From a virus (Duplodnaviria; Caudoviricetes): 64,000 bases of DNA. The notes below the pieces were generated by a model, which was not told the DNA's origin, ran no database searches, and worked only from the letters and a program-made list of their open reading frames with translations. Both the position numbers and the translations under genes were made by a program. The DNA is taken from the IMG/VR virus record IMGVR_UViG_3300021185_003040, positions 59,788 to 123,787 of that record; one strand, 5' to 3'. Below, piece after piece: positions 958-26,600 of the stretch (its first letter is position 1; each line of letters starts with the position of its first letter).

Positions 958-3006
958 TTACCAGCTAGCGGCCCATACAAATTCAAAGTTATGTTTCTTA
1001 CAAAACTTTTCAATCATATCTGAAATCTTAGCTTGGGCAGCTTCGTACTTAGCGTAATCTCTTCCATCTATAATATTATAAGCACTTTCACCATATTCAT
1101 CAGGATGTCTTAATTCTCTTGGCTCGTCAGTCTTATAATAAACTTTCTTTTCAGCTGTTCTAATATAAGGCATTCTTAATTCTATTCTTCTATGTGCTTT
1201 TCTTCCGCTTGCCTTTGCGATGTCATATTGCTTTTCGATTCTTGGCTTTAATCTAGTCCATTCGGCTAATATTTTATCATTAGCTTTAAAACCTGCTAAA
1301 ATAGTTTTCATGTCAAATTCTACTCCGTTTACTCTTTTGTAATCTTTGAAAACTCCAACTACATCATCCATAAATTTATCAAAGCTAGAAATAGATTGAT
1401 ATGATCCATGGACAATTCCCATACCCCATTCATCTTCTACCTTTCCAGTTGATACTTTTTTGGTTCCATTGAATAATTTTGCAAATGAATAATTAGGTCT
1501 ACGAGTTGAGTTGTTAGAAGAAAACTTAAATACTTCATGTTTCCATGATTTTCCTCGAAGATCAATAGCTAAACACAAATTACCTCCATAATTCCATTCT
1601 GATCTATAAACTCTACATCTAAATTGAATTTTTGGAAATTCCTTTTTTAAACGCTCTGCCATTTGTAAACCATTACCGAAGTTAGATTCTCTTTTGTATG
1701 CTTCTTTACATTCTTTAGATTTTCTAGCAATAGCTAAAACCTTACTTATTGTATAGTATGTTTCTGAATCGAATATTTCATCATCTGTTTCTTTATCTAA
1801 AATAACATCTTCATTAATAGATTTTAAATGAGTCAGTTTAGTGGATGTTGATTCTGCAAATGCTTCAATATCCCATTGGATTCTTTGCATTGGATCATCA
1901 CCTCTAAAGTTTTTCTCAACCCAATCAATAAGACCTGGTTCGAATTGGGCGTTTTGTGCCATATCATAGGCATTCTTCCAACCGTCGTTTGATGCAACGT
2001 CTTCTAACCATTGGTCATATTTCCTTTGAGTCCATCTTACTTTCTTAACAGCTTTCTTATGAGGACCAGCTCCTAATGTTGACTTTACAGTATTGTAGTG
2101 TTCTGGACCTGCAAATACGCCTTCTGCCCATTCTTGATCTCTTTTATTACCGTCCCAATATTTAATTTCTTTTCTGAATCTTCTTAGTGAATAATTACCA
2201 CCTTCAATTTGTTTACGCTTTGTTACTTCTCCTTGTCTGTAACCTATTTCAATCTTCTTTTCTTCGGCAGTTTTAGGATCCATTTCGAAATGTAAAGATT
2301 TTACTAAATCTCCAATACCATCAAATTTACCTTCAGTAACTACTGATTCATCTAAACCTAATGATTTATTAACTAGATCTTCAATAACAGTAGAATAATC
2401 GTCCTTCAAAGCCCATTTAATTGTTTGACCTTGACTTCTTGCTTTTTTGTTTATCCATTTAAGATGTGTTGCATCAGTAAGAAACTCGGAAGCTTCTTTT
2501 GCAATTCTCTTTGGATCCTTTTTCCATTCTTCAATAGTAGTGCCAAAGTTATTACCGTATGTAGAACCATTAGTTCTTTTAAGGTTATTGATTCCACCAA
2601 TCTTAATGTATATGTCATTATTAATAGGCATTGCTTCAAAGAAAACTACATCTCTTTCTTCTGGGTTGTTTTCACCAGATAATTGATCAATAGCATAAGT
2701 ACTATGAACTCTCCAAGTAGGTTCGCCCTTTACATTGTATGCTGCTGAGTGCGTATCTCCACCAAATTCAGAAGCTTTTAACTTATATGCTTTAGCTTCA
2801 TTGGTGGATCCGAAAGATTCAAATGATATAATGTTTTTCATTTCGCGTTGTTTCTTTTTATTTCTCTTCTTCTTATACTCTTCTTCGGCATCTCCCTTTC
2901 CGGCTGGAATATCCCCTGATCCAACTGATGTTTCAGTTGGTAAAGAGACTTCTCCCATTCCGGCCATATCGCCAAGTGATAAGTTTTCGTTTTCGTTTAA
3001 TTCCAT
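958..3006 (-). CDS. Putative internal head (poly)protein
   Basis: 682 aa; internal leader-like MKNIISFESFGSTNE|A; further sites DESVVTE|G and KSINE|D. Confidence 0.55.
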   Translation of the reverse strand: MELNENENLSLGDMAGMGEVSLPTETSVGSGDIPAGKGDAEEEYKKKRNKKKQREMKNIISFESFGSTNEAKAYKLKASEFGGDTHSAAYNVKGEPTWRVHSTYAIDQLSGENNPEERDVVFFEAMPINNDIYIKIGGINNLKRTNGSTYGNNFGTTIEEWKKDPKRIAKEASEFLTDATHLKWINKKARSQGQTIKWALKDDYSTVIEDLVNKSLGLDESVVTEGKFDGIGDLVKSLHFEMDPKTAEEKKIEIGYRQGEVTKRKQIEGGNYSLRRFRKEIKYWDGNKRDQEWAEGVFAGPEHYNTVKSTLGAGPHKKAVKKVRWTQRKYDQWLEDVASNDGWKNAYDMAQNAQFEPGLIDWVEKNFRGDDPMQRIQWDIEAFAESTSTKLTHLKSINEDVILDKETDDEIFDSETYYTISKVLAIARKSKECKEAYKRESNFGNGLQMAERLKKEFPKIQFRCRVYRSEWNYGGNLCLAIDLRGKSWKHEVFKFSSNNSTRRPNYSFAKLFNGTKKVSTGKVEDEWGMGIVHGSYQSISSFDKFMDDVVGVFKDYKRVNGVEFDMKTILAGFKANDKILAEWTRLKPRIEKQYDIAKASGRKAHRRIELRMPYIRTAEKKVYYKTDEPRELRHPDEYGESAYNIIDGRDYAKYEAAQAKISDMIEKFCKKHNFEFVWAASW

Positions 3007-3009
3007 ATC

Positions 3010-3327
3010 TTAATATTCAAATGGTGGAGTTCCATAATCACCTTGTTCGATGCCATACCATACTCCTGATACTTGTAAATACCACCATCCATATTTAGTG
3101 TCGTCTACTACTTTAAATTTCTTAGGTAATTTAACAGATTTTTTTGGAGCTCTAGCAATATACTTTAAAACTGGAACACCATCATCCCATGTTTTTTTAG
3201 TAGATCTTGCTTGAACTGATTGTCCATCTGAAAACGCATCAAATGCTTTTGCATCTTCTATTTCATCTGCTAATAAATCGATAGCTGATTCATTAATGTA
3301 TTGTTCAAATAATTTTACTTTTTTCAT
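3010..3327 (-). CDS. Putative internal head protein
   Basis: N-terminus MKKVKLFEQYINE|S resembles the T4 capsid-targeting sequence MKTYQEFIAE. Confidence 0.6.
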   Translation of the reverse strand: MKKVKLFEQYINESAIDLLADEIEDAKAFDAFSDGQSVQARSTKKTWDDGVPVLKYIARAPKKSVKLPKKFKVVDDTKYGWWYLQVSGVWYGIEQGDYGTPPFEY

Positions 3328-3328
3328 T

Positions 3329-4663
3329 TTACCAAACTATGTTTTTATTATCCCATTTAGCCATTCTTTGCTTAAGCTCTAGTGCTTTACGCTTAGCATC
3401 TCTCATATACCAAGAACTTGATGAACCGAATTTTTCTTCTTCAGTTTTCATATTAACGTATGCTGAAACATATCCTTGATAATCTGACAATATATTTGCA
3501 ATATAATTGGTTAAATCTCTAGGTCTAATTTCTCTTCCTTTAGGGTCTTTTCCTATTGTTAATTCGTTATAGTTTCCTAATTCTTTTTTAGCTAAACCAG
3601 CCATTAAGAATTGGTGTGCATCTTCGATAATTTCTTTAACTTTCTTGTCTATTTTATCTGGGTTATCAGCTTTCTTCGCAAGAATATCGTTATACCTTGT
3701 TAAGTTATCCTCTTTGATTTTCTTAGGGTTTGTAAGTGCAGTAGCTCCAGATTTTGCCTCTGCTCTTGCAGATGTCTTATCATCGGTAGATAAAGAAGCT
3801 CTTAATGTGTCTAAATTAATAATGTAACATTCGTCAGACATTTCCGCAATTCTTTTAATGTTACCTAATCCCGTTCCACTATATTGGTTGTGTGATTTGT
3901 TAACACCGACAGTATCTTTAGATCCAGGGTATTTACCCATGTTCTTAAGTCTTCTTGTGTTTTTCTTACCACCTATTGTGTCGCTGTTTCTATTCCATAT
4001 TGAATCGTTCTGAAACATTTCATTTTTTCCATTAGAAACAGCTAATAAACAATTTCCAGGAATCATTTCAACATATCTTCCGGAAGAAGGAGCATATTCA
4101 TTTTCTTTTTCATTTCTAGAAATCCAAAATACAATTACGTTTCCGAATGTTTTTGCTTTCTTATAAACTTCAACTGGGTTGCTATTAGAAATTATCATAT
4201 CATCGGTAACTTTATCTAGTGCTACTTTAGCAAGACCGTATATACCTTTAATTAATTCCTTACCACCTTTTTTGATGTCTATTAATCCTCTTAACTTGGA
4301 AGAAGCTAGAGCTTCATTAAGTTTTAAAGATTCAGTTGCTCTGTATTTTGCAAATTTACCCTTTTTAATTGTTTTAACTAATTCAGCTTCGCTATCGTCA
4401 ATATTGCCATATACATCATTATGTGTTGCTGCGTTTACTATTTCACCAGCATCACCAATAAAATAAGTTCCTCCTGCATATTCGTCTCCATCCATATCTA
4501 GATCAAAACCACCGGCATCTAATGAATTTTTAGAAATTGTGAATTCTTTTCCGTCTGCTTTTGAAAGAGCAGCTGCTAATTTTTTTGCTATTTTAGCAGT
4601 ATCTTTCTGCTTCATAACCTTTGCTTCATTGATAAAATTATCGAAGTTAGTATATAGTTTCAT
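3329..4663 (-). CDS. Putative internal head protein, two modules
   Basis: N-terminus MKLYTNFDNFINE|A; internal TESLKLNE|A. Confidence 0.55.
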   Translation of the reverse strand: MKLYTNFDNFINEAKVMKQKDTAKIAKKLAAALSKADGKEFTISKNSLDAGGFDLDMDGDEYAGGTYFIGDAGEIVNAATHNDVYGNIDDSEAELVKTIKKGKFAKYRATESLKLNEALASSKLRGLIDIKKGGKELIKGIYGLAKVALDKVTDDMIISNSNPVEVYKKAKTFGNVIVFWISRNEKENEYAPSSGRYVEMIPGNCLLAVSNGKNEMFQNDSIWNRNSDTIGGKKNTRRLKNMGKYPGSKDTVGVNKSHNQYSGTGLGNIKRIAEMSDECYIINLDTLRASLSTDDKTSARAEAKSGATALTNPKKIKEDNLTRYNDILAKKADNPDKIDKKVKEIIEDAHQFLMAGLAKKELGNYNELTIGKDPKGREIRPRDLTNYIANILSDYQGYVSAYVNMKTEEEKFGSSSSWYMRDAKRKALELKQRMAKWDNKNIVW

Positions 4664-4687: not shown

Positions 4688-4695
4688 TATATATC
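4688..4695 (-). promoter_or_regulatory. Class-2 (putative late) promoter GATATATA
   Basis: Recurring motif at about 14 gene boundaries in the window. Confidence 0.6.
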
Positions 4696-4697
4696 TT

Positions 4698-7600
4698 TTA
4701 ATGTAAGGAATCATGTGCTAATTCATTAGCTAAGTCTGGATTATCATCTGTGAAATCTGATAATTCTTCGTCAGTCATTTCTTTTCCATTAGAATATTCA
4801 CCATAACTAAAGAATGCATCTGTGAAATCTGGATAATCTTTCATATCAACATCTTCCATTTCTAATGAACTAATATCTACTTTCTTTCCTTTAAATTTAA
4901 TATAATTAGCTTCGTTAATAAAAGATTCTAATGTTAAACTAACAACTGGTTTAATTCCAGTTAATATTCTTTTTCCAAATTTAGAAAGACCAATTCCATT
5001 TTCACTTACTGTAAAGTATTTAGAATTTCTTCTCATCCATCTTTTATTATCGATTGATTTTTCTTTTAGAATATTATTGAATTCTTCTTCTGTTAATACA
5101 CCATCCGCTAATGCCTCGATCATTGCGTTTCTGACTTTAGCAGTTCTACCTGAAGTTTGTGCAGGATGATTATCGGTATATCTTCTTTTTATTTGAATTT
5201 TAGATTCTCTAAGACCCGGTTTCATTACGTTTAATTCCCACCACTGTTCTAATTGGTGATAAATATTTGCACCCATGTTTGAAATCATGAAGTCAATTAC
5301 ATCATCATAATTGTCTTTTTCATCTTGATAAAAACCAGGAGTATCGATATATTCTTTACCCATTATCTTTCTAACTGCTCTTTCTGGCATAGCATCGATT
5401 TCTTTTAAAAATTCTTCGAAATCTTCATCGTTTTTAAAACCCTTAGCTTCAATAACCATTGATTCCATTAGGCCAATAGCAATCTCTCCAACTTCTCTAT
5501 CGCCGCCGTCAACATATCTTTTGTTAAGTATTGCAAATTTAAAACCATCTGCTTTTATCGTATACATTGGCATCATACTATCACTATAGTCGTATTTGTA
5601 TTTACCTGCTTTTAATTCTTTACCGATTGCAAAGAAATCTTTAGCTTTACCTACTAAATCTGCAAGATTATCTAAGTGGTCACCAGCGTCGTCCTTTTCA
5701 TTAACTAATGATTCATAAACTCCTTTTTCAATGTTCTTGATTAAGAGTTTAGCACCCTTCTTGTCAAGTTCATTTTGAATAAAGTCCATCATTTCGTTGG
5801 GATCTTCAGCATCTATACCAAATTCAGATGCTAAGTTTTGATATGCATCAAATTCCATATTAGAAATAGTGTCTTCTAAGTCTGCATACACATCTTCATT
5901 AACTGCTGATTCTACCATTACTAGCCCTATATCCTTATATGCTATTTCATGCTCTCCACCGTCTTGATCTAGTGCAAATACTGATTTATCATGCCACATT
6001 GCAGCATTGTCATCGTTATTAGAATCAGGATTATAAATGATATATTCTTTTCCGTTTCCGGTTTGAATCATTGCATCATCTGCATCTCCTAATTTTTTTA
6101 ATAATGACTTTTTAGTATACCTTTCTTCAACAGCTTCACCTGACGTATATTCAAAATCATTATATAGTGCCTTTAACCATTCTAAAAACTCTGGAGTTTT
6201 CTTCATTACTTTCTTATGTCCGTATTCTTTAAAGAATTCTTTCTGAAAAGTATCAAATGATTTGTGATTACCTATCATTTGGTGAATGTCAGACATAACA
6301 CCCTCACTGATAACTAATTTTACATCTTTGTTTTTACCAGCTACTGCATCATCTAGTTCATTTGTAAGAGCTTTCTTTTTTGCTGTTAAATCTATTAGCT
6401 GCTGTCTAGTTGCTGCTTTCTCATCACTTCCATCTTCCGCAGCGATGTATATCTTTACAATATCTTTCATCTTATTAACTGTTTCTCCAAATTCCTTTGA
6501 AATCTTGTTAATAGATCTAGCTTCTAATATATTAGATTCTTCAATGTATTCTCCTAATTCAGGATCGTCCCATCCATTAGGATCGGCTAATACCGATTGT
6601 AAATCTTCTCTTGAACCTGTCATTTCAACTTCTGGCCAATTGCCACCAGGGCCGTTCATTGTTAAAACTTTCATTTTAACATTATATTTCTTTAAAAGCT
6701 TTTTGAGTGTTTTTGATTTAGGATCTATTGCATCCATTACTACAGTAGCTTCATTTAAATTTTCGTCTAGCTTATCAAAGAATCCACCATGTTCACTTTG
6801 TAAATCTTCACCATACTTGTCGTCCCATATTTTAGCTAATTCATCTTTAGTAATTTTACCTTTATATTTTCCCATGATTTCAACATAGACACTACCATAT
6901 TCATATTCAAAATCTTCACCATAAGAAAAATCCCATGCCTTTTCAACATCTTTAATTGTAAGCTTTTTGGCTTCAGTAACCTTTGATTCATACCATCCGT
7001 TTTCGTAATCGTCATCATCTTCATAATCATCATACTCAGGTTCTTGATACCATGATTGATTTGGATCAGATTCTGCTTCTTCAGTAAAGTCATGTCTTTT
7101 CCAATTAAATCTTGGATCTTCAACTAATGCAGGGAATAATGTCTTTTTCTTTTTATCTTTGGTCTTTATTTTACCGAATGCTAAATCAATACCAAGTTGT
7201 CTTAATTCTTTAAATGAACCTTTCATTGTTTTAACATCTTCTTCAGTATATCCATTCATTGTAGCAACAAGATCATAATAATCCATTCCACCAAATTCAC
7301 CATATCCTTCATAATCCTTTTCCGTCCACTTGTTACCCATATTATCATACATAAATACTGTAATCATGTTCTGTCTTTCAGAACCTATTTGTGTGTTTGT
7401 ATCGGATGTAAGCCATGAAAATTGACCTTCAACTATCATCTGTTCATGTAACAATTGAGCACCAGTCGTTACAATGTTTAAATAGCTTTCAGGAATTCCA
7501 TTTACAAAGTTATGTAATTCTGGTTCGAAATCTGGCATACCACATGCATATCTTGGATATGTTGCTCCTTCTGTATTTACAAGAATACTCATTCCATAAT

Positions 7601-7916
7601 ACTCTCCAAGCTCACCTGATTCAGTGTTACAATATAATACAAATACCTGTGGCACTTGAACTTTAAAGTTAGATTGTAATGGATATTCGTTATGACATCC
7701 TAATTCTTTAGTAGTGTATACGTCTAAGGAATGTAATTCTTTATCATATTTAGTTAATTCTCTATATGGAATAGAAGCTCTTTGGTTAAATAGATCTCCC
7801 CAATAAGAAGGCTTTCTCAAGGAATATTTCCCAGAAACCTTTTTGTATACTTTATATAAATCAACGTTTTCGTTCATTGAATTTACAAAGCTTTCGAATG
7901 TTTTTTTAGTGCTCAT
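4698..7916 (-). CDS. Putative multi-module internal head polyprotein
   Basis: 1072 aa; leader MSTKKTFESFVNSMNE; about 12 recurring (ES)xx[NT/hydrophobic]E junctions. Confidence 0.6.
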   Translation of the reverse strand: MSTKKTFESFVNSMNENVDLYKVYKKVSGKYSLRKPSYWGDLFNQRASIPYRELTKYDKELHSLDVYTTKELGCHNEYPLQSNFKVQVPQVFVLYCNTESGELGEYYGMSILVNTEGATYPRYACGMPDFEPELHNFVNGIPESYLNIVTTGAQLLHEQMIVEGQFSWLTSDTNTQIGSERQNMITVFMYDNMGNKWTEKDYEGYGEFGGMDYYDLVATMNGYTEEDVKTMKGSFKELRQLGIDLAFGKIKTKDKKKKTLFPALVEDPRFNWKRHDFTEEAESDPNQSWYQEPEYDDYEDDDDYENGWYESKVTEAKKLTIKDVEKAWDFSYGEDFEYEYGSVYVEIMGKYKGKITKDELAKIWDDKYGEDLQSEHGGFFDKLDENLNEATVVMDAIDPKSKTLKKLLKKYNVKMKVLTMNGPGGNWPEVEMTGSREDLQSVLADPNGWDDPELGEYIEESNILEARSINKISKEFGETVNKMKDIVKIYIAAEDGSDEKAATRQQLIDLTAKKKALTNELDDAVAGKNKDVKLVISEGVMSDIHQMIGNHKSFDTFQKEFFKEYGHKKVMKKTPEFLEWLKALYNDFEYTSGEAVEERYTKKSLLKKLGDADDAMIQTGNGKEYIIYNPDSNNDDNAAMWHDKSVFALDQDGGEHEIAYKDIGLVMVESAVNEDVYADLEDTISNMEFDAYQNLASEFGIDAEDPNEMMDFIQNELDKKGAKLLIKNIEKGVYESLVNEKDDAGDHLDNLADLVGKAKDFFAIGKELKAGKYKYDYSDSMMPMYTIKADGFKFAILNKRYVDGGDREVGEIAIGLMESMVIEAKGFKNDEDFEEFLKEIDAMPERAVRKIMGKEYIDTPGFYQDEKDNYDDVIDFMISNMGANIYHQLEQWWELNVMKPGLRESKIQIKRRYTDNHPAQTSGRTAKVRNAMIEALADGVLTEEEFNNILKEKSIDNKRWMRRNSKYFTVSENGIGLSKFGKRILTGIKPVVSLTLESFINEANYIKFKGKKVDISSLEMEDVDMKDYPDFTDAFFSYGEYSNGKEMTDEELSDFTDDNPDLANELAHDSLH

Positions 7917-7936: not shown

Positions 7937-9016
7937 TTAAACTCGGTTAGGCTTTATTTTATATTTAAATTTACCTTGTGTAATAGAATATATTTGTAAT
8001 TTGCTAGTTTTTCCAGGTAATTTCTTGTAATAGTGAAAAGCTACTATTTCATGATCTTTAGACTCTATAAAAAGGAATGGAGTAGGTATATCTCCTACTG
8101 CTGAAATTACATCGTCTTGTATTTCAGTAAATGTTCTAACGGAAGGCTCAGTCTCTATTATACTTTTAATTTTTTCTGCAGTTTTAGAGTCACTTAGCTT
8201 TCCTAATTCTACGTCATTAAATTTAATTACTAATGCGCCGTTATCTTTATCTCCAGGACCTATTTTAAAATCTCTTTCACTAGAAGAAAGGGCCTGAATA
8301 TCTGTCTTAGTTAAATTTTGAATATGCTTAAATCTTTTTCCACCTACAGTTCCCCATTCATTTATCCAACCTCCACCGGCAGCCATATCTTTACCATCTC
8401 CGTCCGGGTTGATTTCTTCAATATTATATTTTACTGCGTCATATAATGCCGTTAACTTCGGTACATAAGTACTATTAATTCCCTGGTGTTTTGCACCTGT
8501 TCTCCAATTTTGTAACATGCCCTTTGACATTTGAGCTTCTTTTAACTCACATTTACCAAGGGGTGGTTTAATTGGTGACCACCTTTCATTATATAATTCT
8601 AAGTCAGTATCGGCCGCACCTCCACCTATTTTTATATTTTCTACAATATACGCTAGCATTATTTCTCCAGCACCAATTCCATTATCGTCTCTTCCAATAT
8701 TAAACAATTCGTTTGCTTCGCTTTTATTTAACATTAAATATTGAAAAACTACTCCGAATGTATCGTCATCCATTTTAGAAAGCCATAACCTACCATCAGG
8801 TTGTTGTTTAACATCCTGTGTTGAAGTAAACTTAACACCTTGCCATGGACACTTATTCTTTTTAAATGTTCTATTAATTGAATTAAATAAATTCTGTTGG
8901 GCAGCCTTACTGCCGGTTGATGCAACTCCAATATAGGATTCTATAATTAATGCTTCATTTTCAGCATTGGTTTTTGCAGCACTATGTAGTGCTCTTTCAA
9001 AATCGTACCTATCCAT
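7937..9016 (-). CDS. Putative PD-(D/E)xK-fold nuclease
   Basis: GxGE...D.DL...ELK arrangement (GAGEIML, DTDLEL, CELKE) resembles a restriction-endonuclease-like active site. Confidence 0.45.
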   Translation of the reverse strand: MDRYDFERALHSAAKTNAENEALIIESYIGVASTGSKAAQQNLFNSINRTFKKNKCPWQGVKFTSTQDVKQQPDGRLWLSKMDDDTFGVVFQYLMLNKSEANELFNIGRDDNGIGAGEIMLAYIVENIKIGGGAADTDLELYNERWSPIKPPLGKCELKEAQMSKGMLQNWRTGAKHQGINSTYVPKLTALYDAVKYNIEEINPDGDGKDMAAGGGWINEWGTVGGKRFKHIQNLTKTDIQALSSSERDFKIGPGDKDNGALVIKFNDVELGKLSDSKTAEKIKSIIETEPSVRTFTEIQDDVISAVGDIPTPFLFIESKDHEIVAFHYYKKLPGKTSKLQIYSITQGKFKYKIKPNRV

Positions 9017-10880
9017 TGTTTTCTAAAAATTGTTTAAATGTTAATAATGATTCAGTGACTTCATTTGATTCTGAAGCACCTACTGAATCTTCTAATTTTT
9101 TCTTAAGTTCACCATACATTTTATGTAAGGCCTTTGGTGTTGTAGACTTAAATAGTTTTTCATCTCCGTCTAACATTGCATTTCTAACCTGAGTCGCTGA
9201 AATATTATTGTCTGTTCTTGGAATTTCAAATAATCCAAAATCACTCCTAACTCCAAGATCTTCTCTATAAGAATCTTTATTTACTTGGAATCCGTAAGTT
9301 TTCATTCTATCGCTTCCTGTTCCCCATAATACGGGTTCATAAGTTGGTCTCATTGCATTGAACATTGTATCAATACCTCCGGTTGGAATTACAAAGATTT
9401 CTTTTAAGAATGGATATTGTTTTTGAACCGCCTTAAACATATCTAATTGTGTCTTCTCATCATAAGGTCTTTTAAATGCATCTTCCTTTTTCTTATTCTT
9501 TGCTTTTACTAATAAAACAACCACAGGATATCCATTTTCTTTGTGTATAGTTTCTAATACTTTAGCATGTCCAAGTGTAAATGGTTGGAATCTACCAACA
9601 AACATATTTACTAATTCTCCTCCTTGTTCAGGATGATCTACTTTAAGTGCTTCATTTAAATTAACACTTGTCTTTACTTTATTATGTAATATGAAATTAT
9701 TAAAGTCGTATATGGAATTTTCATCGGTATTCTCTACAAATACTTTCTTATCTATAGTTTCTACTATTTGATTTAAATGCTCTAACATTTCTGCATTTAT
9801 GATATCGCTTTCCTTGCTTCTCTTTTTTCTAAAAGAACCTAAAGTTATTTTAAATAATTCTGCAAGTATTTCGTTTTCAACATAAGAAAGAGTGGTCTCG
9901 TTCTTAATGTATTTAGTATTTAGTTTAAAGGAATCTGAATCTGCAAAATCAGCTGATTCAAAGTTAACACCAATAAACTTAGCAGAGTGTTCTTTAACAT
10001 ACGTATTAAACATCACTGACATTAATTCAATATATCTCCAGTCTGCTGTTTCTTCATTTAGTTGAATGTCTTTCATTTCAAATGTAGAAATAAATTCAAT
10101 AAGACCAGCAATAGTAATTTGATACATGTGGCTTGATCTCTTATTTTCACTAACAGTTCTTGTAAAATCTTCTAATTTAAAAGATCTAGATTTTTTCTCA
10201 TCAATAAAAGAAACTATTAATCCGTCAATTTCTACTTCAAAGTCTTCATTTAACGTAGGAGAAATTGCATTTGGATTAAATGTCTTAATCATCTTTTGGG
10301 TAAAAGGTAATCTTGCATCTGTATTTGGATCATAATCAAATGCTTCAGAAAACTCCTTATCTGACATAGATAGAACAGTTATTAATTCTTCTTTTTGCAT
10401 TTGAGATAACATACCATCAAATACAATGCTAGGTCCTTGAACCTCTAATATCTTTGACCATTTATTTAATATAACTGGATCGCTAATTGTTTTTTTAATC
10501 TTACCTGATTCATTCATAGTTTGAATGTGAGTAAGTATTAAATTGTTTTTAGGCAGTTTAGTATATTTATATTCTGACACGTTTAATTCAGGTAAATATT
10601 CAAAACCAAATTTCCAATCATGTGGCATTTGTTCCTTTATACTAGGATCTAGACTTTGGATGTGCTTGACACCTGTTTCATATAAACCTACTATTGTTCT
10701 GTCTATCATGTTCATTCTAGAATCTCCAGATTTGTAATATTCAAATTTAGTCTGGTTTCTTCTAACGTGAAATGAAGCTCCTTGTATTTTTTCAGTTACT
10801 AGAACCCTGCTATTCAACATATCTTGAAATGCATTGATATTAGTTTCCTGAAATACTTGTCTTAGTTTTTTAAGTGCCAT
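9009..10880 (-). CDS. Fusion of an ATP-dependent-ligase-like N-terminal domain and a HIGH-family nucleotidyltransferase (NadM/NMNAT/cytidylyltransferase-like)
   Basis: N-terminal TEKIQG, FGFEY, DGLIV, FKL (ligase motifs I/III/IV/V-like); C-terminal GRFQPFTLGH, GSDR and ISATQVR. Confidence 0.7.
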   Translation of the reverse strand: MALKKLRQVFQETNINAFQDMLNSRVLVTEKIQGASFHVRRNQTKFEYYKSGDSRMNMIDRTIVGLYETGVKHIQSLDPSIKEQMPHDWKFGFEYLPELNVSEYKYTKLPKNNLILTHIQTMNESGKIKKTISDPVILNKWSKILEVQGPSIVFDGMLSQMQKEELITVLSMSDKEFSEAFDYDPNTDARLPFTQKMIKTFNPNAISPTLNEDFEVEIDGLIVSFIDEKKSRSFKLEDFTRTVSENKRSSHMYQITIAGLIEFISTFEMKDIQLNEETADWRYIELMSVMFNTYVKEHSAKFIGVNFESADFADSDSFKLNTKYIKNETTLSYVENEILAELFKITLGSFRKKRSKESDIINAEMLEHLNQIVETIDKKVFVENTDENSIYDFNNFILHNKVKTSVNLNEALKVDHPEQGGELVNMFVGRFQPFTLGHAKVLETIHKENGYPVVVLLVKAKNKKKEDAFKRPYDEKTQLDMFKAVQKQYPFLKEIFVIPTGGIDTMFNAMRPTYEPVLWGTGSDRMKTYGFQVNKDSYREDLGVRSDFGLFEIPRTDNNISATQVRNAMLDGDEKLFKSTTPKALHKMYGELKKKLEDSVGASESNEVTESLLTFKQFLENNG

Positions 10881-10890
10881 ATTATATTAT

Positions 10891-12261
10891 TTATCTTCCG
10901 TACTTTATGATTCCCATCAGCTGATTGATAGCAGCAAAAGTACCTGTTAGTTTCATAGTCTTTCCTTTATATACAAAAACTATTCCTTCAGTTGGTATGA
11001 TAGATTCTACTCCTCCAATTCTATCTAATCTCTCTAGTTCTTTCATTACCTTTTCGATCTGAGTAACGCTTCCATCTTTTTTGATCTTTTCAGATTCTGA
11101 TCTAATTTGATTATGTAGTCTTTGCATCTCTTTGTCTGGATTTGCAGCTACAAAATTAGAAGCATTCATAAGAATTATAGACCCTAGTTCTAAAAATAAA
11201 TCTTCAAACGGTCTAATGTTTTCTTTATATTTCTTTTTAACATCTTCTTTGTCAAATTTCTTAACAGAAGCAGCTTCATCTTTTCCTATCTCCTTTGCAA
11301 GTGATCTCATATTTAAAGACTTTTTATCTCCATAAGCCCATCTTAATAATAAACCTTCCTTATAGTCTTGTTGTAAATCGGGGAAATTTGCATCTATTGT
11401 TTCTCTCCACCACATTTCATGATATCTAGAAACTTCGTCACCGTCTGTTAAGTTATAACGATCTCTTAATTTTTCAATCTGCTTTATAAATTTAGCTTGA
11501 TTTTTATCAAAATTAATATCTTTACCTAGTTTTAAAATCTGAGGAGGAATTATTGTAAATGTCTTTTGAACATCGGCATCTACTTCCTTTAAAGCTTTGA
11601 CTAATTCTCCTGCTATTTTTCTAGATCCTGTAATATTACCATTCCCATCAGTTTCTTGAATATCGTGAAATTGAAGAACATCTCTTTCGTAATAGATTAC
11701 ATTTGGGTTTTTAGAATAGATTAATTCTATATTTATAAAATCTTTACCGTCATTAAATATGGACTGATCTTTAATTTTTGGAAGAGCTTCATTTAGATCT
11801 TTAGCTGCAAACACGTATGTTTCTCGCACTAAAGGTACCTCATGCTTTTCAAACATTTCTATAATACCGTCTAAATCAACGGGACTAATTAATTGACCTT
11901 TATTTCTAGAAAACATCGTAACTCCGTTTTTTACGGTTGCTAATAGATTTTGACCGTCTGTTTTTTCAGTGGCTACCTCTTCAAAGTTTAATTCTCCTTG
12001 AAGACCAGACGTTACGATCTTTTTAAAATCTGCGAATGTTAAATCTTTTTCATCGAAAGGATGAGACATGTGACCAGCTGCACCGCCTTCTAAGATTAAT
12101 TCTTCTTTAAGTGTATTGTATTTTTCAACGATATATTCATCAAATGATAAAACTTTACTCTTATTTTCACTCATATAATGTGCAACATATTCCTCTCTGG
12201 TCATGCCATGTGCATCTGCGTGATGTTGAATAAAATCTACGAAGTTGTTATTTAGTTCCAT
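10891..12261 (-). CDS. ATP-dependent ligase-like nucleotidyltransferase (conserved T4-like phage family, possibly DUF6267-related)
   Basis: LILE|GGAAGHMSHPFD, TEKTDGQN (KxDG), EGIVF and KLTG. Confidence 0.6.
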   Translation of the reverse strand: MELNNNFVDFIQHHADAHGMTREEYVAHYMSENKSKVLSFDEYIVEKYNTLKEELILEGGAAGHMSHPFDEKDLTFADFKKIVTSGLQGELNFEEVATEKTDGQNLLATVKNGVTMFSRNKGQLISPVDLDGIIEMFEKHEVPLVRETYVFAAKDLNEALPKIKDQSIFNDGKDFINIELIYSKNPNVIYYERDVLQFHDIQETDGNGNITGSRKIAGELVKALKEVDADVQKTFTIIPPQILKLGKDINFDKNQAKFIKQIEKLRDRYNLTDGDEVSRYHEMWWRETIDANFPDLQQDYKEGLLLRWAYGDKKSLNMRSLAKEIGKDEAASVKKFDKEDVKKKYKENIRPFEDLFLELGSIILMNASNFVAANPDKEMQRLHNQIRSESEKIKKDGSVTQIEKVMKELERLDRIGGVESIIPTEGIVFVYKGKTMKLTGTFAAINQLMGIIKYGR

Positions 12262-12328: not shown

Positions 12329-14455
12329 TTATAAATATCTATCGATAAATTCTTCTTTGCTACCAACAAATGATCTAGTCTTTGGGCCAAAAAGAACAAT
12401 TTCAGCACCTTTTGATTTAAGCCAATCTGCGACTTTTTGAGCTTTTTTCTTATCAGCTGATAACCATACTGTGTCAAATTCAGAACCGTGAGACCTTTGC
12501 ATTACAATACCTCCTTTTTCATTTGTAAATTTAAACTTATCTCCAAGAGCAACACTTACTTTAATATTTTTATCAAAATTCTTTTTATGATTCTTAAAAG
12601 AATATGCTAAAGCACCTGAGTAACTTTTAGTGTCAGTTGTAAATTCATCTAAAGATGTAGTAGTACCTTCATAAATATTTGATTCAAATGCTGGAACTAA
12701 TCCAGTTTCTCCGTAGATATCTGCCATCATCCATTTTTTAGAACCTTCATCCCATAAATAAACGAATTCTGCACCACCTTCGTAATTTGCATCTTTAATA
12801 TATTTGTTAATATTCTTAACATTACCTTTCATCAGATTAACATCTCCGCCATAGAAATTAATTTTCTTAACGTCTTTATCTAAACCTGAATTATCTCCAT
12901 TTTTAAGAACAAAATCTACATTTTTACCACTTTTAAAGGTTGATTTAATAATAGGCAACATGTTTTCAGGATATGAATCATAGTGAGTATATACTGAAGT
13001 AATATTTCCTTTCTTGTCTATTTTACCAAATTGACCTCTAGTTCCTTCATTAATTACATAATTGATTACTTCGTTAAATTTAGATTCTTTTAAAGAAATT
13101 TCTTCTTCAGTTAATTGAAACTTAACTGATTCTTCTACTGCGTTAAATCCTGCTAATAATTTTTCAGCAAGTTTAGATTCACCAATAGATTCTAAATATA
13201 GAGCAGTGCCTTCAGCAACTCCAATACCTGACCATCCGGCAGCATTTGAAATTCTAGAATAATACTCATCTAATATCTGTGATATTTTCTTTGCTCCTAC
13301 TATAATAGCTTGTTTACCAAGAGTTAAAGGATTAACAGTAACACTTCCTAATCTTCCTTTGATAATTTTTTCAGTAGCTGTTCTTTCTCTATGGAAATTA
13401 GCATCAGTTAATGCTTCAGCATAAATATATTTAATAGCTCCTAAGTGAGAAATTTTATCAGCTGTTAAGCTTCCTAGTTCTGCAAATATTTTATTGTATT
13501 GAGTTAATACTTTCTTTGCATCTCTTTTATATTTAATATCTAAGGCCTCATTCATTAATGATTCTCCTAATCCCCAGTAATTTGCGTAATCGTATTCAAC
13601 TGGGAATATACCTAAATCACCTTCATCACCTTCTTCACTTTTAACAATTTTAGCAAGATAGTAATCTCCCTTTGCAGTATCTTCATATCCGTATGAATCT
13701 GCATCTGATCCCATTTCTTTTTTAAATTGTTTTGATATCTTTCTCCAATTATCGATAGCGATTATTTCAACTTCACTTCCAATTGAATTTTCAGTAGTAT
13801 CTCCTACTTTAAATTTAGCTTTTTCAGTAACTAAAGATTCTGAAAATTCTTCAATATGTTCCATATCGATTTCATCTTCTCCCTTTAATTCTTTTTGTAC
13901 TTCTTTAGACTTTACTAATTTTGAAAGATCTTTCATAGTGATTTCTCCATCAATGAAGTCAGCTAGTATATAGTATTGATTAGCAGAAAGTCCTTCACTG
14001 TCTCTAAAATCACCAATTTCTTCAATTGCTGCTTTAGTAACGGTCTTAGCTTCAGTAATCACTGATTCGCTTAATGAATTTCTTAGACCACAGTGTACGC
14101 ATTCTACCGTTCCGTCCTTGTCAATTTGCTTATATAAATGTCCTTTTTTATTAGTACATTTTGGTTCGTCTGATTCAGTAACTTCTTCTGATGCAGTAAC
14201 CTCTTCTACCTCTACTTCTATTTCAGCGATTTCTTCTTCTGAAACATCTCCAAATATTTTTGAGATAATTGATTCTTTCTGATCTTCTTCTAAACCTTCG
14301 AAAGAAGTTAATCCTAATTCATCTAGAATAGCAGCTATTTTACCAACTGATTCTTGTCTTTTTAAATTGTTTTCTTCTCTAAGTTTACTAACAGATTCCT
14401 GTTTTCTAATCTCTGTAAACGATTTAAATGAAGAAATTTTATTAACTTTTGCCAT
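12329..14455 (-). CDS. Putative multi-module internal head polyprotein
   Basis: 708 aa; leader MAKVNKISSFKSFTE; junctions SESVITE|A, SESLVTE|K, GESLMNE|A, YVINE|G and FESNIYE|G. Confidence 0.6.
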   Translation of the reverse strand: MAKVNKISSFKSFTEIRKQESVSKLREENNLKRQESVGKIAAILDELGLTSFEGLEEDQKESIISKIFGDVSEEEIAEIEVEVEEVTASEEVTESDEPKCTNKKGHLYKQIDKDGTVECVHCGLRNSLSESVITEAKTVTKAAIEEIGDFRDSEGLSANQYYILADFIDGEITMKDLSKLVKSKEVQKELKGEDEIDMEHIEEFSESLVTEKAKFKVGDTTENSIGSEVEIIAIDNWRKISKQFKKEMGSDADSYGYEDTAKGDYYLAKIVKSEEGDEGDLGIFPVEYDYANYWGLGESLMNEALDIKYKRDAKKVLTQYNKIFAELGSLTADKISHLGAIKYIYAEALTDANFHRERTATEKIIKGRLGSVTVNPLTLGKQAIIVGAKKISQILDEYYSRISNAAGWSGIGVAEGTALYLESIGESKLAEKLLAGFNAVEESVKFQLTEEEISLKESKFNEVINYVINEGTRGQFGKIDKKGNITSVYTHYDSYPENMLPIIKSTFKSGKNVDFVLKNGDNSGLDKDVKKINFYGGDVNLMKGNVKNINKYIKDANYEGGAEFVYLWDEGSKKWMMADIYGETGLVPAFESNIYEGTTTSLDEFTTDTKSYSGALAYSFKNHKKNFDKNIKVSVALGDKFKFTNEKGGIVMQRSHGSEFDTVWLSADKKKAQKVADWLKSKGAEIVLFGPKTRSFVGSKEEFIDRYL

Positions 14456-23641: not shown

Positions 23642-26600
23642 TTATCCTGAGAACTCTCCGGTTCCGTCGCCGTTTTCTGCGCCACCGTTTGTGTTTGTTG
23701 CCTTTTTATTATTTCCTCCAAGAGGCTGTATGTTACCCGGTGCCTGTGTGGCCCAATTTGAAGCATTACTACTGTCGGTGTATTGACCTCCGTTGGCATA
23801 TAAAAAATGTCCAAATAAAAGAGCAATATTATCTCCTGGATTTGATGCATTATAATTTAGAATTTGATCTACTACTGACGAATCTAAAAGAACCTTAAAT
23901 TCCACTGTTTGATATCTTCTAAACATGATGTCTTCTTGTCCAAACCTCCATGAATGTGAATCCATGAAAGAAGTACCCGCTGCTTCTGTACTACCCACAG
24001 TCACATTATATCCTCCTTGTAGAGCCGTTCTACCTCCCATATAATTGAATCCATATTCGTATGGACCATACGGATTCGTACCGCTATTATTATTTCCTGT
24101 ACCTCTAGCTTGGCCGTCGTCATAATGTACAGCTCTCCAATGATCATCTCCTTCGTCGTATGTATATGGATCTAAATATTGTACAACATCATTTGCCGTA
24201 ATACCTAGAGAGGGGTATTGTGATTGTATTTCTGATAGGTTAAACGTAGTTATCACAGGTAATAAAATTTGATCTGCCGCACTATTCCCATTATTGGTTA
24301 TAGGGTCGATTGCAACCTGTATAGGCTGGGTGTATATTCCTTTACGACTAACTAGTGAATCTCCTGCAGAAATTGTCATAGCCGGAGGATAAATTCTTGA
24401 GATGTATGATTCACTATCATACCATTCGTCATCAGCTAAAGCATTTCCAGTTCTATCTGAATCATAACATCCGGAAAATGAGTCTGGATACATTCCACCT
24501 CCACTTGGATTTGGAAAGTTAACCCATGGAGTCGCCGGATATTGCGCATCATAGCTGCTAATTGCATTCTCATTAGAATCCGGTAATCTTACGAAATATC
24601 CCTCCACAGCAGAAAGGTTTGAAATTCCGCGCCATGATGAATCTGCTAACCTAGCTCCAACTGGATTAGGATATGCTGCGGAAGGCGTTACAGTGTTTCC
24701 ATATATGTCAGTGACACTAGAAGTTGAAACGCTCGTTAACATTGGATTTATAGTATACCAATGTCCGGTTAGACTGTAGCCGACGCCATCTGCATAATAA
24801 AATACATCACCTGCTACATAAGTAGCTCCGGTGCTAAAAGTACCTCTGTCATTCCATGTTCCAGTAACAAATGCTGGAGATGGTACTGCGTATGGTGTTG
24901 ATGTAGGCTGATTTGGATTTGGCAACCTATATTCGTTCCAATTAACAAACCATGAATAATGATCTAGTGATGAATAAAAACCCAAAAGATTACTGTTATC
25001 GTTATCACTACCTGTTTGGTACCATGCTTTTCCTTTCATTTGCACAGTTAAAATTAAATTTTCACCATACTCTAAATTATGCGATCCTATTGTGTCAACC
25101 ACATAAGTAAAATCACTTTCATCATGATCTAATATTTTTACACTTCCGAATCTATACCTAAGTTGTTTAGTCAATGCCTGGTCAGCTGTTGGTTGAGATG
25201 TGTCCATTCTAGTTTGCTCCATTGCAAACTCATATTGTGCATTAACTGGGGCCATCGATGGCTTTTGCCATCCAAGTACGCCACCGCTCTCTGGATCTAC
25301 ACCGCCTCCACTTAAAATAGTGGATTTGGTGGCATTAAAGAAATCTATTGTTGCCGGTGGAGCTCCTGCTGCTTTAAAGTAGAATCCAGGTAGACCTAAA
25401 TAAATAAGTTGTGGAGTTCTAACAATTTTATAAACTATATGATCTTCGGGTATGCTTGATGGTTCTGCCATTCCGACCGATTCATCACCTGTTACATAAG
25501 TATCTGTAAGAGTACTTCCATTTTGATTCATTGTTGCATAACTTCCTCCTAATACATTAAGAGCAACCGGTCCTGAAGTAGTATTACCGTCAGGTGTTGT
25601 TATACTATAATTAAACGAATTTAAATTTGGAACCGTATACGATTCTCCATTTTGACCTACCCATGTTTCACCATTACAGAGATACCATCCTTCATATTCA
25701 GTACCTGCAATCCCTGCTCCAATTTCTATCTCTATATTATCCGGATTTGTTCCACTATCAATATATGTTTGAATGTTCTGAGACTGTATAAAGTTATTTG
25801 TATCTTCGTAAATAGAAGGTAAGAATGATATTATCGTTCCTATTGGTATTCCTGCTCCAATTTCTTCAGGTGTTTTAAAACCTATCGTACCATCATTATC
25901 TAGAGAAACTGCTATTTTTCCTGCAGCGGGATCAGTTCCTGGGGTAGAACTAGGACCTATGTCTATTTTAAATATTGATCCAACAAAATGAGCACTTCCT
26001 GTAGAAACAAAATTACCAGTAAACAATGCACCATTATTAGCGTCCATTGTTAATATGTTGTTATCGCTTAAATCTTTAAATTTAAAAGAATCAGCTCTAT
26101 AGTTTATATTTTTTTGAACACCTGTAGTCTCATTAAACCCAATATTTAAATTATATCTGTTTAGTGAATTACCATAGCTTGCATCAAAGTAAGTATCTGT
26201 TGTTAAATCAAAATCAGCATATATTCCTTGTGAATTATTAGAAACTAATCTAATATTAGAATCTACATATTGGTCGTTTTTATTTACTACTAATTGTGCT
26301 CTATATATAGGAGAACTGGAATTTTGAATATCACCATATTCTGGATAATCGGTTGTAAATCCTAATAATACAGTAGGTGAATGATCATTCTGTGTACTGC
26401 TAATAGTATCGACTGGAACTATTGTTTGTATATTTAAGCTTGATGTTTGATACACTACACCATCTTTCCAGAAATTAGAAACAGATGTATTAATAGGTCC
26501 TTGAGGACCTTGATCTCCACCAGTACCCTGAGGGCCTTGATCACCAGCCACACCTTGCATCCCAGTTTCTCCAATTGGACCAGTAGATCCCATTGGACCA

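Follow-up and report, generated by a model that had tools for sequence, protein, structure and literature searches.

Glu-ending junctions that resemble capsid-targeting leaders divide a mosaic protein of an uncultured marine phage into twelve candidate head-cargo modules

How does one reading frame of a phage come to carry a dozen unrelated protein segments, set off from each other by similar short peptides, and what might become of its product? We address this question for an open reading frame (ORF) of 1072 residues at positions 4698..7916 (minus strand) of a 64,000-nucleotide stretch of DNA (hereafter the window), which is the right-hand half of a linear 123,787-bp virus record from IMG/VR (IMGVR_UViG_3300021185_003040; CheckV completeness 44%). 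The ORF starts with ATG, has no internal stop and encodes a protein, named P0001, of 123 kDa with an isoelectric point (pI) of 4.7; a plus-strand reading of 4698-7916 was rejected, as it contains stops throughout. An earlier reading of the DNA (the original prediction) had described the ORF as a cassette array, in which a capsid-targeting-like leader is followed by modules that a prohead protease of the phage T4 type would release inside the head. We find that P0001 is a modular mosaic, that its junctions end in a conserved Glu and resemble the leaders of its family, and that a gene for a prohead protease of the gp21 family lies in the same genome. P0001 is read here as a fused form of the T4 internal-protein system, and probably acts as a precursor of head cargo.

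Sequence-defined junctions divide P0001 into a leader and 12 modules (M1-M12). Residues before a putative cut are counted backwards as P1, P2 and so on; the P1 Glu of the leader site is Glu16, and those of the 11 internal junctions lie at residues 163, 315, 389, 465, 538, 598, 674, 740, 823, 904 and 1002. The original prediction had these junctions punctuating the ORF, and all 11 strings that it quoted are present, each once. The strict form E-S-x-x-x-E (ES...E) occurs at only six of them, compared with a mean of 0.61 in shuffled sequences (standard deviation 0.79); none of 2000 shuffles reached six. When a preceding hydrophobic residue is demanded, the form occurs five times versus 0.18 expected. 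The junctions that end M1, M3, M5, M6 and M10 are of a looser hydrophobic-x-E type, and break points in relatives back these too. Enrichment of the motif, which the prediction implied, extends to the family, with 434 ES...E in 108 relatives versus 56 expected. Across the whole record, the 110 ORFs of at least 80 residues contain 32 ES...E, 12 of which are found in P0001 and in a 708-residue ORF (12329-14455).

The modules measure 60-152 residues (7-18 kDa) and are mutually without significant similarity, as the original prediction had noted; the best pair, M5 and M12, reaches an E value of 0.003 over 38 residues in a 12-sequence database. Each of the 12 modules was searched separately against 240 proteins, and the frequencies given below refer to this set. 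All coordinates are on the minus strand, and arrows mark putative cuts. The leader (7869..7916; residues 1-16; MSTKKTFESFVNSMNE↓N) has an F-x-x-F-V pattern as in the leaders of T4 internal proteins (IPs). M1 (7428..7868; residues 17-163) ends in MIVE↓G, has low AlphaFold confidence and is found in 55 of the 240 relatives, where it stands at the N-terminus or with only a short unmatched stretch before it. The commonest module, M2 (6972..7427; residues 164-315, beginning GQFSW), ends in WYESKVTE↓A and is present in 193 relatives. M3 (6750..6971; residues 316-389) ends in DENLNE↓A and occurs in 37, and M4 (6522..6749; residues 390-465) ends in EESNILE↓A and occurs in 75. M5 (6303..6521; residues 466-538), a helical hairpin with helices at 469-492 and 498-525, ends in VISE↓G (179 relatives), and M6 (6123..6302; residues 539-598) ends in AVEE↓R (115 relatives). 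M7 (5895..6122; residues 599-674) is modelled as one helix and five strands, ends in VESAVNE↓D and recurs in 81 relatives. The rarest module is M8 (5697..5894; residues 675-740), which ends in YESLVNE↓K and has counterparts in 16; the close relatives P0014-P0017 have other inserts in its place. The C-terminal part consists of M9 (5448..5696; residues 741-823; MESMVIE↓A; 106 relatives), M10 (5205..5447; residues 824-904; LRE↓S; 31 relatives), the basic M11 (4911..5204; residues 905-1002; pI 10; LESFINE↓A; 91 relatives) and the acidic M12 (4701..4910; residues 1003-1072; 50 relatives), which is C-terminal here and comes last in every architecture that holds it.

Nearly all of this material lacks known family members. 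A Pfam search of P0001 at E up to 1 gave nothing above the cut-offs, with DUF6329 (E 7.6e-4, 19.6 bits against a cut-off of 26.8) as the best match, SHOCT at E 0.056, and neither a peptidase family nor a MuF domain; phmmer against PDB sequences gave no match at E up to 1. The sole PHROGs match is PHROG 5922 (unknown function), which matches M4 at residues 408-448 (E 3.9e-5). Among 61 diverse relatives, searched with Pfam at E up to 0.001, DUF5824 is found in three, GHMP_kinases_C, CTP_transf_like, Citrate_ly_lig and Death are found in one each, and no peptidase family is found; one shorter relative has a PIN_4 domain. The cytidylyltransferase-like, GHMP kinase C-terminal and PIN matches indicate that the pool includes some enzymes. 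Searches with Pfam, PHROGs, PDB, Foldseek, VIA-align and ESM Atlas yielded no firm assignment for P0001 or M2, and the results contain no sign of an anti-defence role of the modules.

Relatives of P0001 are numerous, but few are collinear with it. A collection at 90% identity contains 425 relatives of similar length and 206 shorter ones, and among 50%-identity clusters there are 1,944 matching representatives at E up to 0.001, 803 of them at E up to 1e-10. Those listed come from metagenomic or unnamed records, and the few with source labels are marine (TARA). No match at 1e-5 was obtained by tblastn of P0001 against 50,697 phage records, a collection that may omit the window's own genome, and no fused form of 1877-5000 residues scored, which is weak evidence. 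The typical match covers only 10-40% of P0001, at 60-95% identity. BLAST alignments of 107 relatives place 322 of 559 internal segment ends at most 5 residues from the 12 sites, and 402 of 559 at most 10 residues away; for 5000 random sets of 12 positions, the number of ends within 5 residues averaged 67.7 and reached a maximum of 218. The modules occur in many orders, such as 2-6-5 (21 proteins), 2-5, 11-4-x-9, 9-11-x, 9-3-2 and 6-x-2, and in longer series such as 1-2-7-9-5-6-11 and 5-7-9-x-11-x-3, interspersed with stretches foreign to P0001. Some proteins are minimal: P0337 (170 residues) consists of a leader and M2, and P0219 of a leader, M11 and M4. P0255 joins M11, M2, a cytidylyltransferase-like module and further pieces.

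The residue before a module is conserved irrespective of what stands further upstream. We projected each module start onto every relative and gathered the distinct upstream octapeptides. Of these contexts, 250 of 285 have Glu exactly at P1, and the majority of the others miss P1 by a single position, because the borders of M3, M7 and M11 are shifted by one in some lineages. Glu precedes M1 in 11/11 contexts, M2 in 46/46, M6 in 17/17 and M10 in 14/14, as well as M4 in 27/28 and M9 in 30/31. P3 was tallied in the 240 contexts selected for a P1 Glu: 220 have V (104), I (62) or L (54) and 4 have A, and S is absent from the seven residues listed at this position. The logo of 207 distinct sites reads E-S-V-V-(T/N)-E, then A (95), K (32), G (23) or S (17), with K often next. 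Conservation is at the peptide level, as the 13 strict-site junction DNAs of the window have only the letters GAA TCN ... GAA in common; a DNA-level recombination signal at the junctions was rejected on the same ground. Several contexts end in ...G-L-M-E↓S-K-I-Q, where the first Glu of 'E-S' itself precedes a module, and E-S-x-x-x-E may therefore represent two putative cut sites five residues apart. Redundant sites are reported for phiKZ propeptides (PMC9026906).

The junctions also resemble the leaders with which proteins of this family begin. In relatives, modules that are internal in P0001 also follow short N-terminal leaders, and their start residue is then the same: M11 follows directly on MNKFEDFLKE↓GKKIQIK in many proteins, M9 on MATTKFENFVNSLNE↓KDDAG in P0230 and similar proteins, M5 on MKKVTTFENFLNE↓RSINK, M6 on MNFKSFLSENKKDYASLLE↓GAMSDI and M2 on MKIKKTFKRFNLESINE↓GQFSW, and in P0303 and P0334 the peptide MxxFESFxxFLNE↓ precedes the same domain as M1. 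The commonest leader form is M-K-x-h-K-x-F-E-x-F-h-N-E (h, hydrophobic), with Glu at residue 13. When a matrix derived solely from 210 internal junctions was run over residues 1-30, it detected a site scoring 6 bits or more in 88 of 220 distinct family N-termini, compared with 6 of 105 other ORFs of the phage. Leader-like starts are present in 9 of 110 ORFs of the record versus 1.9 with shuffled N-termini, and these include the 1072-residue gene, neighbouring genes of 105 and 444 residues and a small acidic protein encoded beside the protease gene. Furthermore, four relatives contain complete internal leaders with an initiator Met, versus 1.0 by shuffling (for example ...NMKNLKSLNEFINE↓KDD, and MKNLKSLNEFINE↓ inside P0255), which look like traces of fusion between neighbouring leader-bearing genes.

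These leaders have the spacing of the T4 capsid targeting sequence (CTS). In the T4 record, IPII and IPIII start with MKTYQEFIAE↓A and IPI with MKTFKEFTSTTTPVSTITE↓A. The first 10 residues of T4 IPIII suffice for packaging; CTS positions 4 and 7 are assigned to targeting and positions 8 and 10 to processing, which an Asp at position 10 blocks, and gp21 cleaves after Glu in L/I-X-E, with Alt, the IPs and core proteins as substrates (PMC9026906). The internal proteins of T-even phages are highly diverse, with the CTS as their only common part (PMC3012670). Residues Y4, F7, I8 and E10 of T4 correspond to P7, P4, P3 and P1 and are conserved in the family leaders as F/Y, F, L/I/V and E. Internal junctions retain P3, P2 and P1 and have E-S at P6-P5, as do many leaders. 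The leaders of the 105- and 444-residue ORFs fit the CTS spacing exactly, and that of P0001 keeps the F-x-x-F-V core with its Glu three residues later, as in the longer T4 IPI leader. The capsid-targeting-like character that the original prediction ascribed to this leader is thus borne out by comparison with the CTS read from the T4 record.

A candidate protease for these sites is encoded by the same phage. The left half of the record contains genes for a T4-type portal (Portal_T4, E 1.5e-67) and a Gp23-type major capsid protein (E 1.9e-43), and adjoining them, about 30 kb upstream of the P0001 gene, lies an ORF of 682 residues (G000:32705-34753) whose residues 14-161 match Peptidase_S77 (E 7e-10) and S80 (E 4e-7); a PF03420 match above the cut-off (41.7 bits) is located at G000:34340-34681 within this ORF. 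The small acidic protein mentioned above (122 residues), whose leader the family leaders resemble, is encoded between the portal and protease genes. Among deposited phages, the capsid protein matches best that of an uncultured phage of 462 kb (52% identity) and those of the Lak megaphages (40%). Together with the head-gene matches, this places the phage as a remote member of the T4-like head lineage that has yet to be cultured. The protease domain itself is fused to about 500 coiled, very acidic and repeat-rich residues (VEETEE runs), and a high-scoring junction-like EKVETVNE↓A lies at residue 655 of 682, which suggests a protease-scaffold fusion with putative C-terminal self-processing. For the capsid protein, KLYE↓D (Glu43) is a second cleavage candidate beside one at Glu26; orthologues of the capsid protein (G001, G005) are uninformative on which Glu is cut because their first 48 residues are identical, and three of five searched fragments have no capsid gene.

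Predicted structures are consistent with separately folded modules in the middle of the protein. The full-length AlphaFold2 model of P0001 (41 mostly close relatives) is poor overall, with a mean predicted local distance difference test score (pLDDT) of 47, and its confident blocks cover approximately residues 320-456, 469-528, 540-588, 600-669, 680-719 and 747-798, with pLDDT 84-88 in blocks of M3 and 75-90 in M7. Between these blocks, pLDDT falls below 50 at 457-468, 529-539, 589-597, 670-678, 720-746 and 799-827, which correspond to the junctions at 465, 538, 598, 674, 740 and 823. Short dips at 421-425 and 568-570 fall inside modules, the junction at 389 shows only a mild drop, and residues 1-316 and 893-1072, for which the model is thus uninformative, are below 50 throughout. 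M2 modelled alone (70 diverse sequences) reaches a pLDDT of 81 and a predicted template modelling score of 0.73, with module residues 1-124 forming a compact core, where pLDDT exceeds 85, and residues 125-152 forming a disordered acidic tail whose end is the junction. In the M2 alignment, 24 positions are invariant, and the residue just before the module is almost invariably Glu.

The M2 model has no match in the PDB by Foldseek (best E 2.0) or VIA-align (48,161 chains, none with Z of at least 2), nor in BFVD (best E 1.5), and ESM Atlas gave no usable match; M2 may have a fold without a solved relative, although a missing match is not proof of a new fold. In ESM Atlas, M11 has one viral cluster at 0.76, below lead level. 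The full-length model has no Foldseek match in the PDB at E up to 0.001. Hfq chains are listed for it at E 0.06-0.15, with a probability of about 1 and a template modelling score of about 0.6 on the target; the matched range of the model is not given, and from the secondary structure of M7 these matches would belong to that module, for which neither an Hfq fold nor any other is claimed. The VIA matches of the full-length model are mostly generic helical hairpins at residues 462-532 (M5) with Z up to 8.9, which is common for helices.

These observations can be combined into a pathway that we regard as probable. The 16-residue leader would direct the precursor into the scaffolding core while the prohead assembles, and the gp21-type (S77/S80) prohead protease would cut after Glu at the leader and the 11 internal sites. 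The predicted cut consensus, E-S-V-V-(T/N)-E↓A/K/G/S with V, I or L at P3, is in line with the L/I-x-E rule of T4. The 12 released proteins of 7-18 kDa would stay inside the head and pass into the host along with the DNA, like T4 IPI-III and Alt. As a junction resembles a leader, each module would keep a usable site next to any neighbour, whether it stands internally or first, and recombination, gene fusion and fission could therefore reshuffle modules among several cargo genes. The cassette-array view of the original prediction has thus gained from the break points at the sites, the free module order and the gp21-family protease in the same genome; its expectations that pieces would occur as stand-alone proteins (P0337, P0219, and the module of the 105-residue ORF within P0266), form domains bounded by the sites (the pLDDT dips between confident blocks) and be gained, lost or replaced at junctions among syntenic, non-collinear relatives were likewise realized. 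Of the computational outcomes that the prediction had named as refuting it, none was observed.

Several points weigh against this pathway. The phage is uncultured, and we infer cleavage, packaging into the virion, ejection and any effector role of the modules. The break-point counts stem from related proteins and not from independent events, and the limits of M1, M2 and M10-M12 are set by comparison alone, because full-length AlphaFold confidence is low there. The conserved E-S at P6-P5 lies outside the published gp21 rule, and the Glu of the P0001 leader stands at residue 16, not where a CTS of 10-13 residues would put it. The candidate propeptide site of the phage's own capsid protein, IIESATGINE↓A (Glu26), is longer by one residue in the stretch from the S to the final E. 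Apart from M5 (pI 8.2) and M11 (pI 10.0), the other ten modules are acidic (pI 4.1-5.5), whereas T4-type internal proteins are described as basic (PMC9026906). Finally, a promoter search directly upstream of the P0001 ORF revealed none that was recognizable.

The same junctions might instead punctuate an uncleaved multidomain protein of the 'polyvalent' type, in which E-S-V-V-T/N-E serves as a structural linker or docking strand and the product persists as one 123-kDa chain, packaged or not. Polyvalent phage proteins are a precedent, as they unite 2-15 unrelated domains and are in some cases transferred intact (PMC5512222); cleavage of P0001 is itself inferred, and the conserved P6 E and P5 S go beyond what gp21 is known to require. 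We consider an uncleaved chain unlikely, however, as modules start at the identical residue behind short leaders that end in the same h-(N/T)-E. A linker is a weaker explanation because the 'linker' is also found at the very N-terminus, before single modules. Moreover, the P1 Glu is kept regardless of the neighbouring modules, the junctions fall in low-confidence, probably flexible stretches, and their spacing equals that of the experimentally mapped T4 CTS.

Cleavage in the prohead could also yield pieces that are never delivered, if P0001 were a scaffold or core component like T4 gp22, gp67 and gp68 whose fragments are expelled before DNA packaging. Scaffold and core proteins are acidic, as is P0001 overall, and the leader of the acidic protein between the portal and protease genes resembles those of the family. 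T4 core proteins are cut at several sites and mostly leave the head (PMC9026906). Such a component would be expected to end up as short peptides, whereas the pieces here are conserved domains of 7-18 kDa, with a confidently folded core and 24 invariant positions in M2, and some family members contain enzyme modules (cytidylyltransferase-like, GHMP kinase C-terminal, PIN). A scaffold also predicts neither a free-order pool of at least 110 recurring module families nor rapid turnover between phages that are 85-99% identical, and we regard it as quite improbable. Less credible still is cutting outside the prohead, with a protease of the host or a different one of the phage processing the precursor in the cytoplasm, either prior to injection or after it, and with products that act in the producing infection. 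This would suit a gene that stands beside the replication genes (UvsW, UvsY, primase) and away from the head genes, and no physical tie of P0001 to the head is seen here. The combination of Glu at P1 and I/L/V at P3, however, is the specificity of the gp21 family (PMC9026906), and such a protease is encoded by this phage, with no other peptidase family in the scanned proteins (a scan of part of the record's ORFs). The leaders also mirror the T4 CTS, and the ip genes in the T4 record likewise lie apart from the head genes.

Compared with known systems, the putative head-cargo precursor combines familiar elements in an unusual arrangement. T4 IPI, IPII, IPIII and Alt share with it the short N-terminal leader with aromatic-x-x-aromatic-I/L/V-x-Glu spacing, the hydrophobic-x-E site (here at the sequence level), the gp21-family protease and highly variable cargo behind a conserved leader. 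Each T4 protein, in contrast, has a separate gene and one leader, whereas up to 12 modules per ORF are found here, with a leader-like site before each, an additional conserved E-S at P6-P5 and mostly acidic modules instead of small basic single-gene proteins; processing and delivery of the modules are, moreover, predicted. Polyvalent proteins (Iyer et al, 2017; PMC5512222) also unite many unrelated domains in one polypeptide, with mosaicism and predicted delivery with the DNA, and their authors draw the analogy to viral polyproteins. Release is proposed there to occur via embedded peptidases (zincin-like MPTase), and the domains have a known enzymatic repertoire (ART, ParB, ArdC-N, helicases). 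In P0001 and in 61 diverse relatives, by contrast, Pfam found neither an embedded peptidase nor this repertoire; each boundary is marked by a defined sequence at which a protease would act in trans, and hardly any module belongs to a known family.

Inner-body and ejection proteins of the giant phages phiKZ, 201phi2-1 and SPN3US are a further parallel: many head proteins of these phages are cut after Glu by a gp21 relative (S80; gp175, gp245), there are propeptides with several redundant sites and paralogous ejected families, and the protease described here matches S80 too. The motif reported there is S/A-X-E, with a small P3, and of each protein a single mature fragment is reported to be retained in the head. 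In the present family, V, I or L occupies P3 in 220/240 contexts, and each segment has the look of a product. MuF polymorphic toxins likewise have a constant head-associated N-terminal part and exchangeable C-terminal cargo, but are described with one variable toxin domain per protein and an immunity gene, and with neither arrays nor protease-site junctions (Jamet et al, 2017; PMC5576092). RNA virus polyproteins are similar as single translation products cut at sequence-defined sites into several functional proteins; they differ in their unrelated proteases and products, and the modules here are accessory, variable cargo of a DNA phage and not replication or capsid machinery. Scaffold and core proteins of the T4 gp22, gp67 and gp68 type have one conserved architecture and are cut into short peptides that leave the head; P0001 has a non-conserved architecture and pieces that are domains of 60-152 residues, which may or may not stay in the head. 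The CTS with gp21-type cleavage in T4, multi-site processing of giant-phage ejection proteins and multidomain polyvalent proteins are therefore already known. No description of module arrays behind leader-like prohead-protease sites, reshuffled at these sites, was found in a literature search whose coverage of subscription journals was thin, so that an earlier mention, including one in marine phage virion proteomes, is possible.

Cargo-type genes are not confined to P0001 (all coordinates in the window, minus strand). A second array, the 708-residue ORF (12329..14455), contains six ES...E sites with P1 Glu at 135, 211, 303, 431, 462 and 596 and shares the module pool. The 444-residue ORF (3329..4663) has the leader MKLYTNFDNFINE↓A, an internal TESLKLNE↓A at residue 117 and two modules, both of which are found within arrays elsewhere. 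The 105-residue ORF (3010..3327) consists of the leader MKKVKLFEQYINE↓S and one module, and thus resembles a T4 internal protein; the same module is the last, internal one of P0266 (563 residues; 80% identity), behind ...EKVNE↓S. A cargo-type ORF of 682 residues (958..3006), distinct from the protease ORF, has the sites FESFGSTNE↓A (at about residue 70) and DESVVTE↓G (residue 225), and the part between them is missing in relatives. In the 623-residue ORF (9009..10880), a junction-like SVNLNE↓A lies just before a cytidylyltransferase-like domain and ESNEVTE↓S lies near the C-terminus; the domain is the module found in the array protein P0255 and thus belongs to the same pool.

Turnover of whole modules is visible between closely related phages. 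Seven IMG/VR loci (L012, L018, L022, L025, L026, L027 and L028) have the same neighbour genes in the same order, within the reach of each fragment. In the five closer loci that include the flanks, flank identity is 85-99% (UvsW 95-99%, a 359-residue gene 87-99%, the 623-residue gene 86-98%); the UvsW of L028, a more remote locus, is 72% identical. The P0001 orthologue of L022 and L025 consists of modules 1-2, about 270 foreign residues and then modules 5-6-7-11, and the foreign stretch partly resembles residues 206-296 of the window's 708-residue protein. The 708-residue orthologue of the same two loci holds an M4-like module, and the 444-residue gene of L025 has an M4-like insertion. L026 and L027 lack the stretch between the two sites of the 682-residue cargo-type gene. 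These whole-module differences indicate that the genes at 958-3006, 3010-3327, 3329-4663, 4698-7916 and 12329-14455 draw on one pool. A rough catalogue was made by cutting 344 proteins at sites of at least 8.5 bits and clustering the pieces of at least 45 residues; its 1,381 pieces form 300 clusters, 110 with at least two members and 38 with at least five, from a sample biased to proteins that share a module with P0001.

A broader view, to which we give slightly less than an even chance, is that these genes represent plug-and-play cargo of abundant uncultured ocean phages. Any module behind a leader-like peptide of about seven residues would be loaded and then released by the prohead protease, and fusion, fission and recombination at these peptides would convert single-, few- and 12-module genes into one another. 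Marine bacteria would then receive, as soon as infection begins, proteins from a large reservoir that is almost entirely uncharacterized. In a query-biased sample, this pool has no fewer than 110 recurring module families and some 1,900 protein clusters at 50% identity, and it would include the M2 fold without a solved relative and small enzymes.

T4 internal proteins are textbook examples of phage proteins that are injected with the DNA to disarm host defences, and they are encoded by single small genes at a hypervariable locus. Our results suggest that a large group of marine phages has apparently fused this idea into arrays, with one precursor, many products and the same short address-and-cut peptide, freely reshuffled. 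If cleavage is confirmed, the junction motif would become a sequence tag for virion-delivered proteins in metagenomes, which are otherwise unrecognizable, and screens for anti-defence or host-takeover functions could draw on hundreds of candidate effectors that act early. In that case, the motif would also offer a natural rule for the design of T4-type capsids that carry several proteins. A maturation protease that acts in trans would also make domain shuffling nearly cost-free, because a module could be released in any neighbourhood.

Within the record, a single strand carries all large genes and the G+C content is about 32%. The P0001 gene adjoins T4-like replication genes (UvsW helicase, UvsY-like protein, primase and a gp32-like single-stranded-DNA-binding protein), and baseplate, tail-fibre and neck genes lie farther along the same record. 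A protein identical to P0001 is found on 99 contigs, and the metagenome runs that hold its gene are labelled seawater or marine. Sampled words of the gene are present at 0.94-0.97 in six metatranscriptome runs, and contigs of four runs cover the gene; this evidence consists of contigs, without a silent control stretch and with possible DNA carry-over, and is at most a weak hint of transcription, which we do not count as proof.

The RNA-library contigs also record variation at this locus. In seawater contigs from two runs, 466 bases of the 682-residue cargo-type gene (window 2340-2807) are swapped for 289 others, and loose ends or breaks of contigs occur at 5235, 5400 and 6294, near the junctions at residues 904 and 538. 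Such variant contigs are weakly consistent with co-occurring strains that differ by modules. One low-depth contig that joins residue 740 (the M8/M9 junction) to residue 1040, skipping 4798-5694, was set aside as too weak, as one of its sides is only 22 letters long.

Additional features were observed in individual cargo-type genes and their neighbours. Residues 12-32 of the 682-residue cargo-type protein (window 2911-2973) match residues 55-75 of the capsid protein (G000:32325-32387), with 13 of 21 positions identical (pairwise E 9e-7) and the common motif GMG-[DE]-VSLP...GSGD; this part of the capsid protein is variable among relatives. The N-terminus of the cargo-type protein may thus be a capsid-arm mimic for incorporation. 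The cytidylyltransferase-like domain of the 623-residue protein holds FTLGH (Pfam E 8e-9), and the protein ends in ...ESNEVTE↓SLLTFKQFLENNG, a junction followed by a leader-like tail, and overlaps the start of the next gene. This ORF and a 456-residue ORF (10891-12261), which lie between the two arrays, contain E-K-x-x-G / E-K-T-D-G stretches (VTEKIQGAS, ATEKTDGQN) that we take to resemble motif I of nucleotidyl-transferases (ligases).

Elsewhere in the window, two proteins of about 1,000 residues (23642-26701 and 26746-29922) match collagen-like tail-fibre PHROGs over short stretches close to the N-terminus (E 1e-7 to 1e-9), and adjoining them are very large ORFs of 1613 and 1273 residues, for which the only matches are PHROGs of unknown function. 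As a clue to timing, the T4 late promoter TATAAATA was rejected, with 14 matches versus 16.2 expected in the window and thus no enrichment. A different element, GATATATA, has 13 copies in the window (at 4688, 14489, 18792, 19022, 20162, 26725, 34795, 41362, 48795, 50238, 61690, 62258 and 63065), all on the coding (minus) strand, compared with a both-strand shuffle mean of 8.4. No copy lies directly upstream of the 1072-residue ORF. Most copies are located 20-45 nucleotides 5' of ORF starts, including those of the 444- and 708-residue cargo genes, tail-fibre and baseplate genes and the gp32 region, and the element may be the promoter core of the phage.

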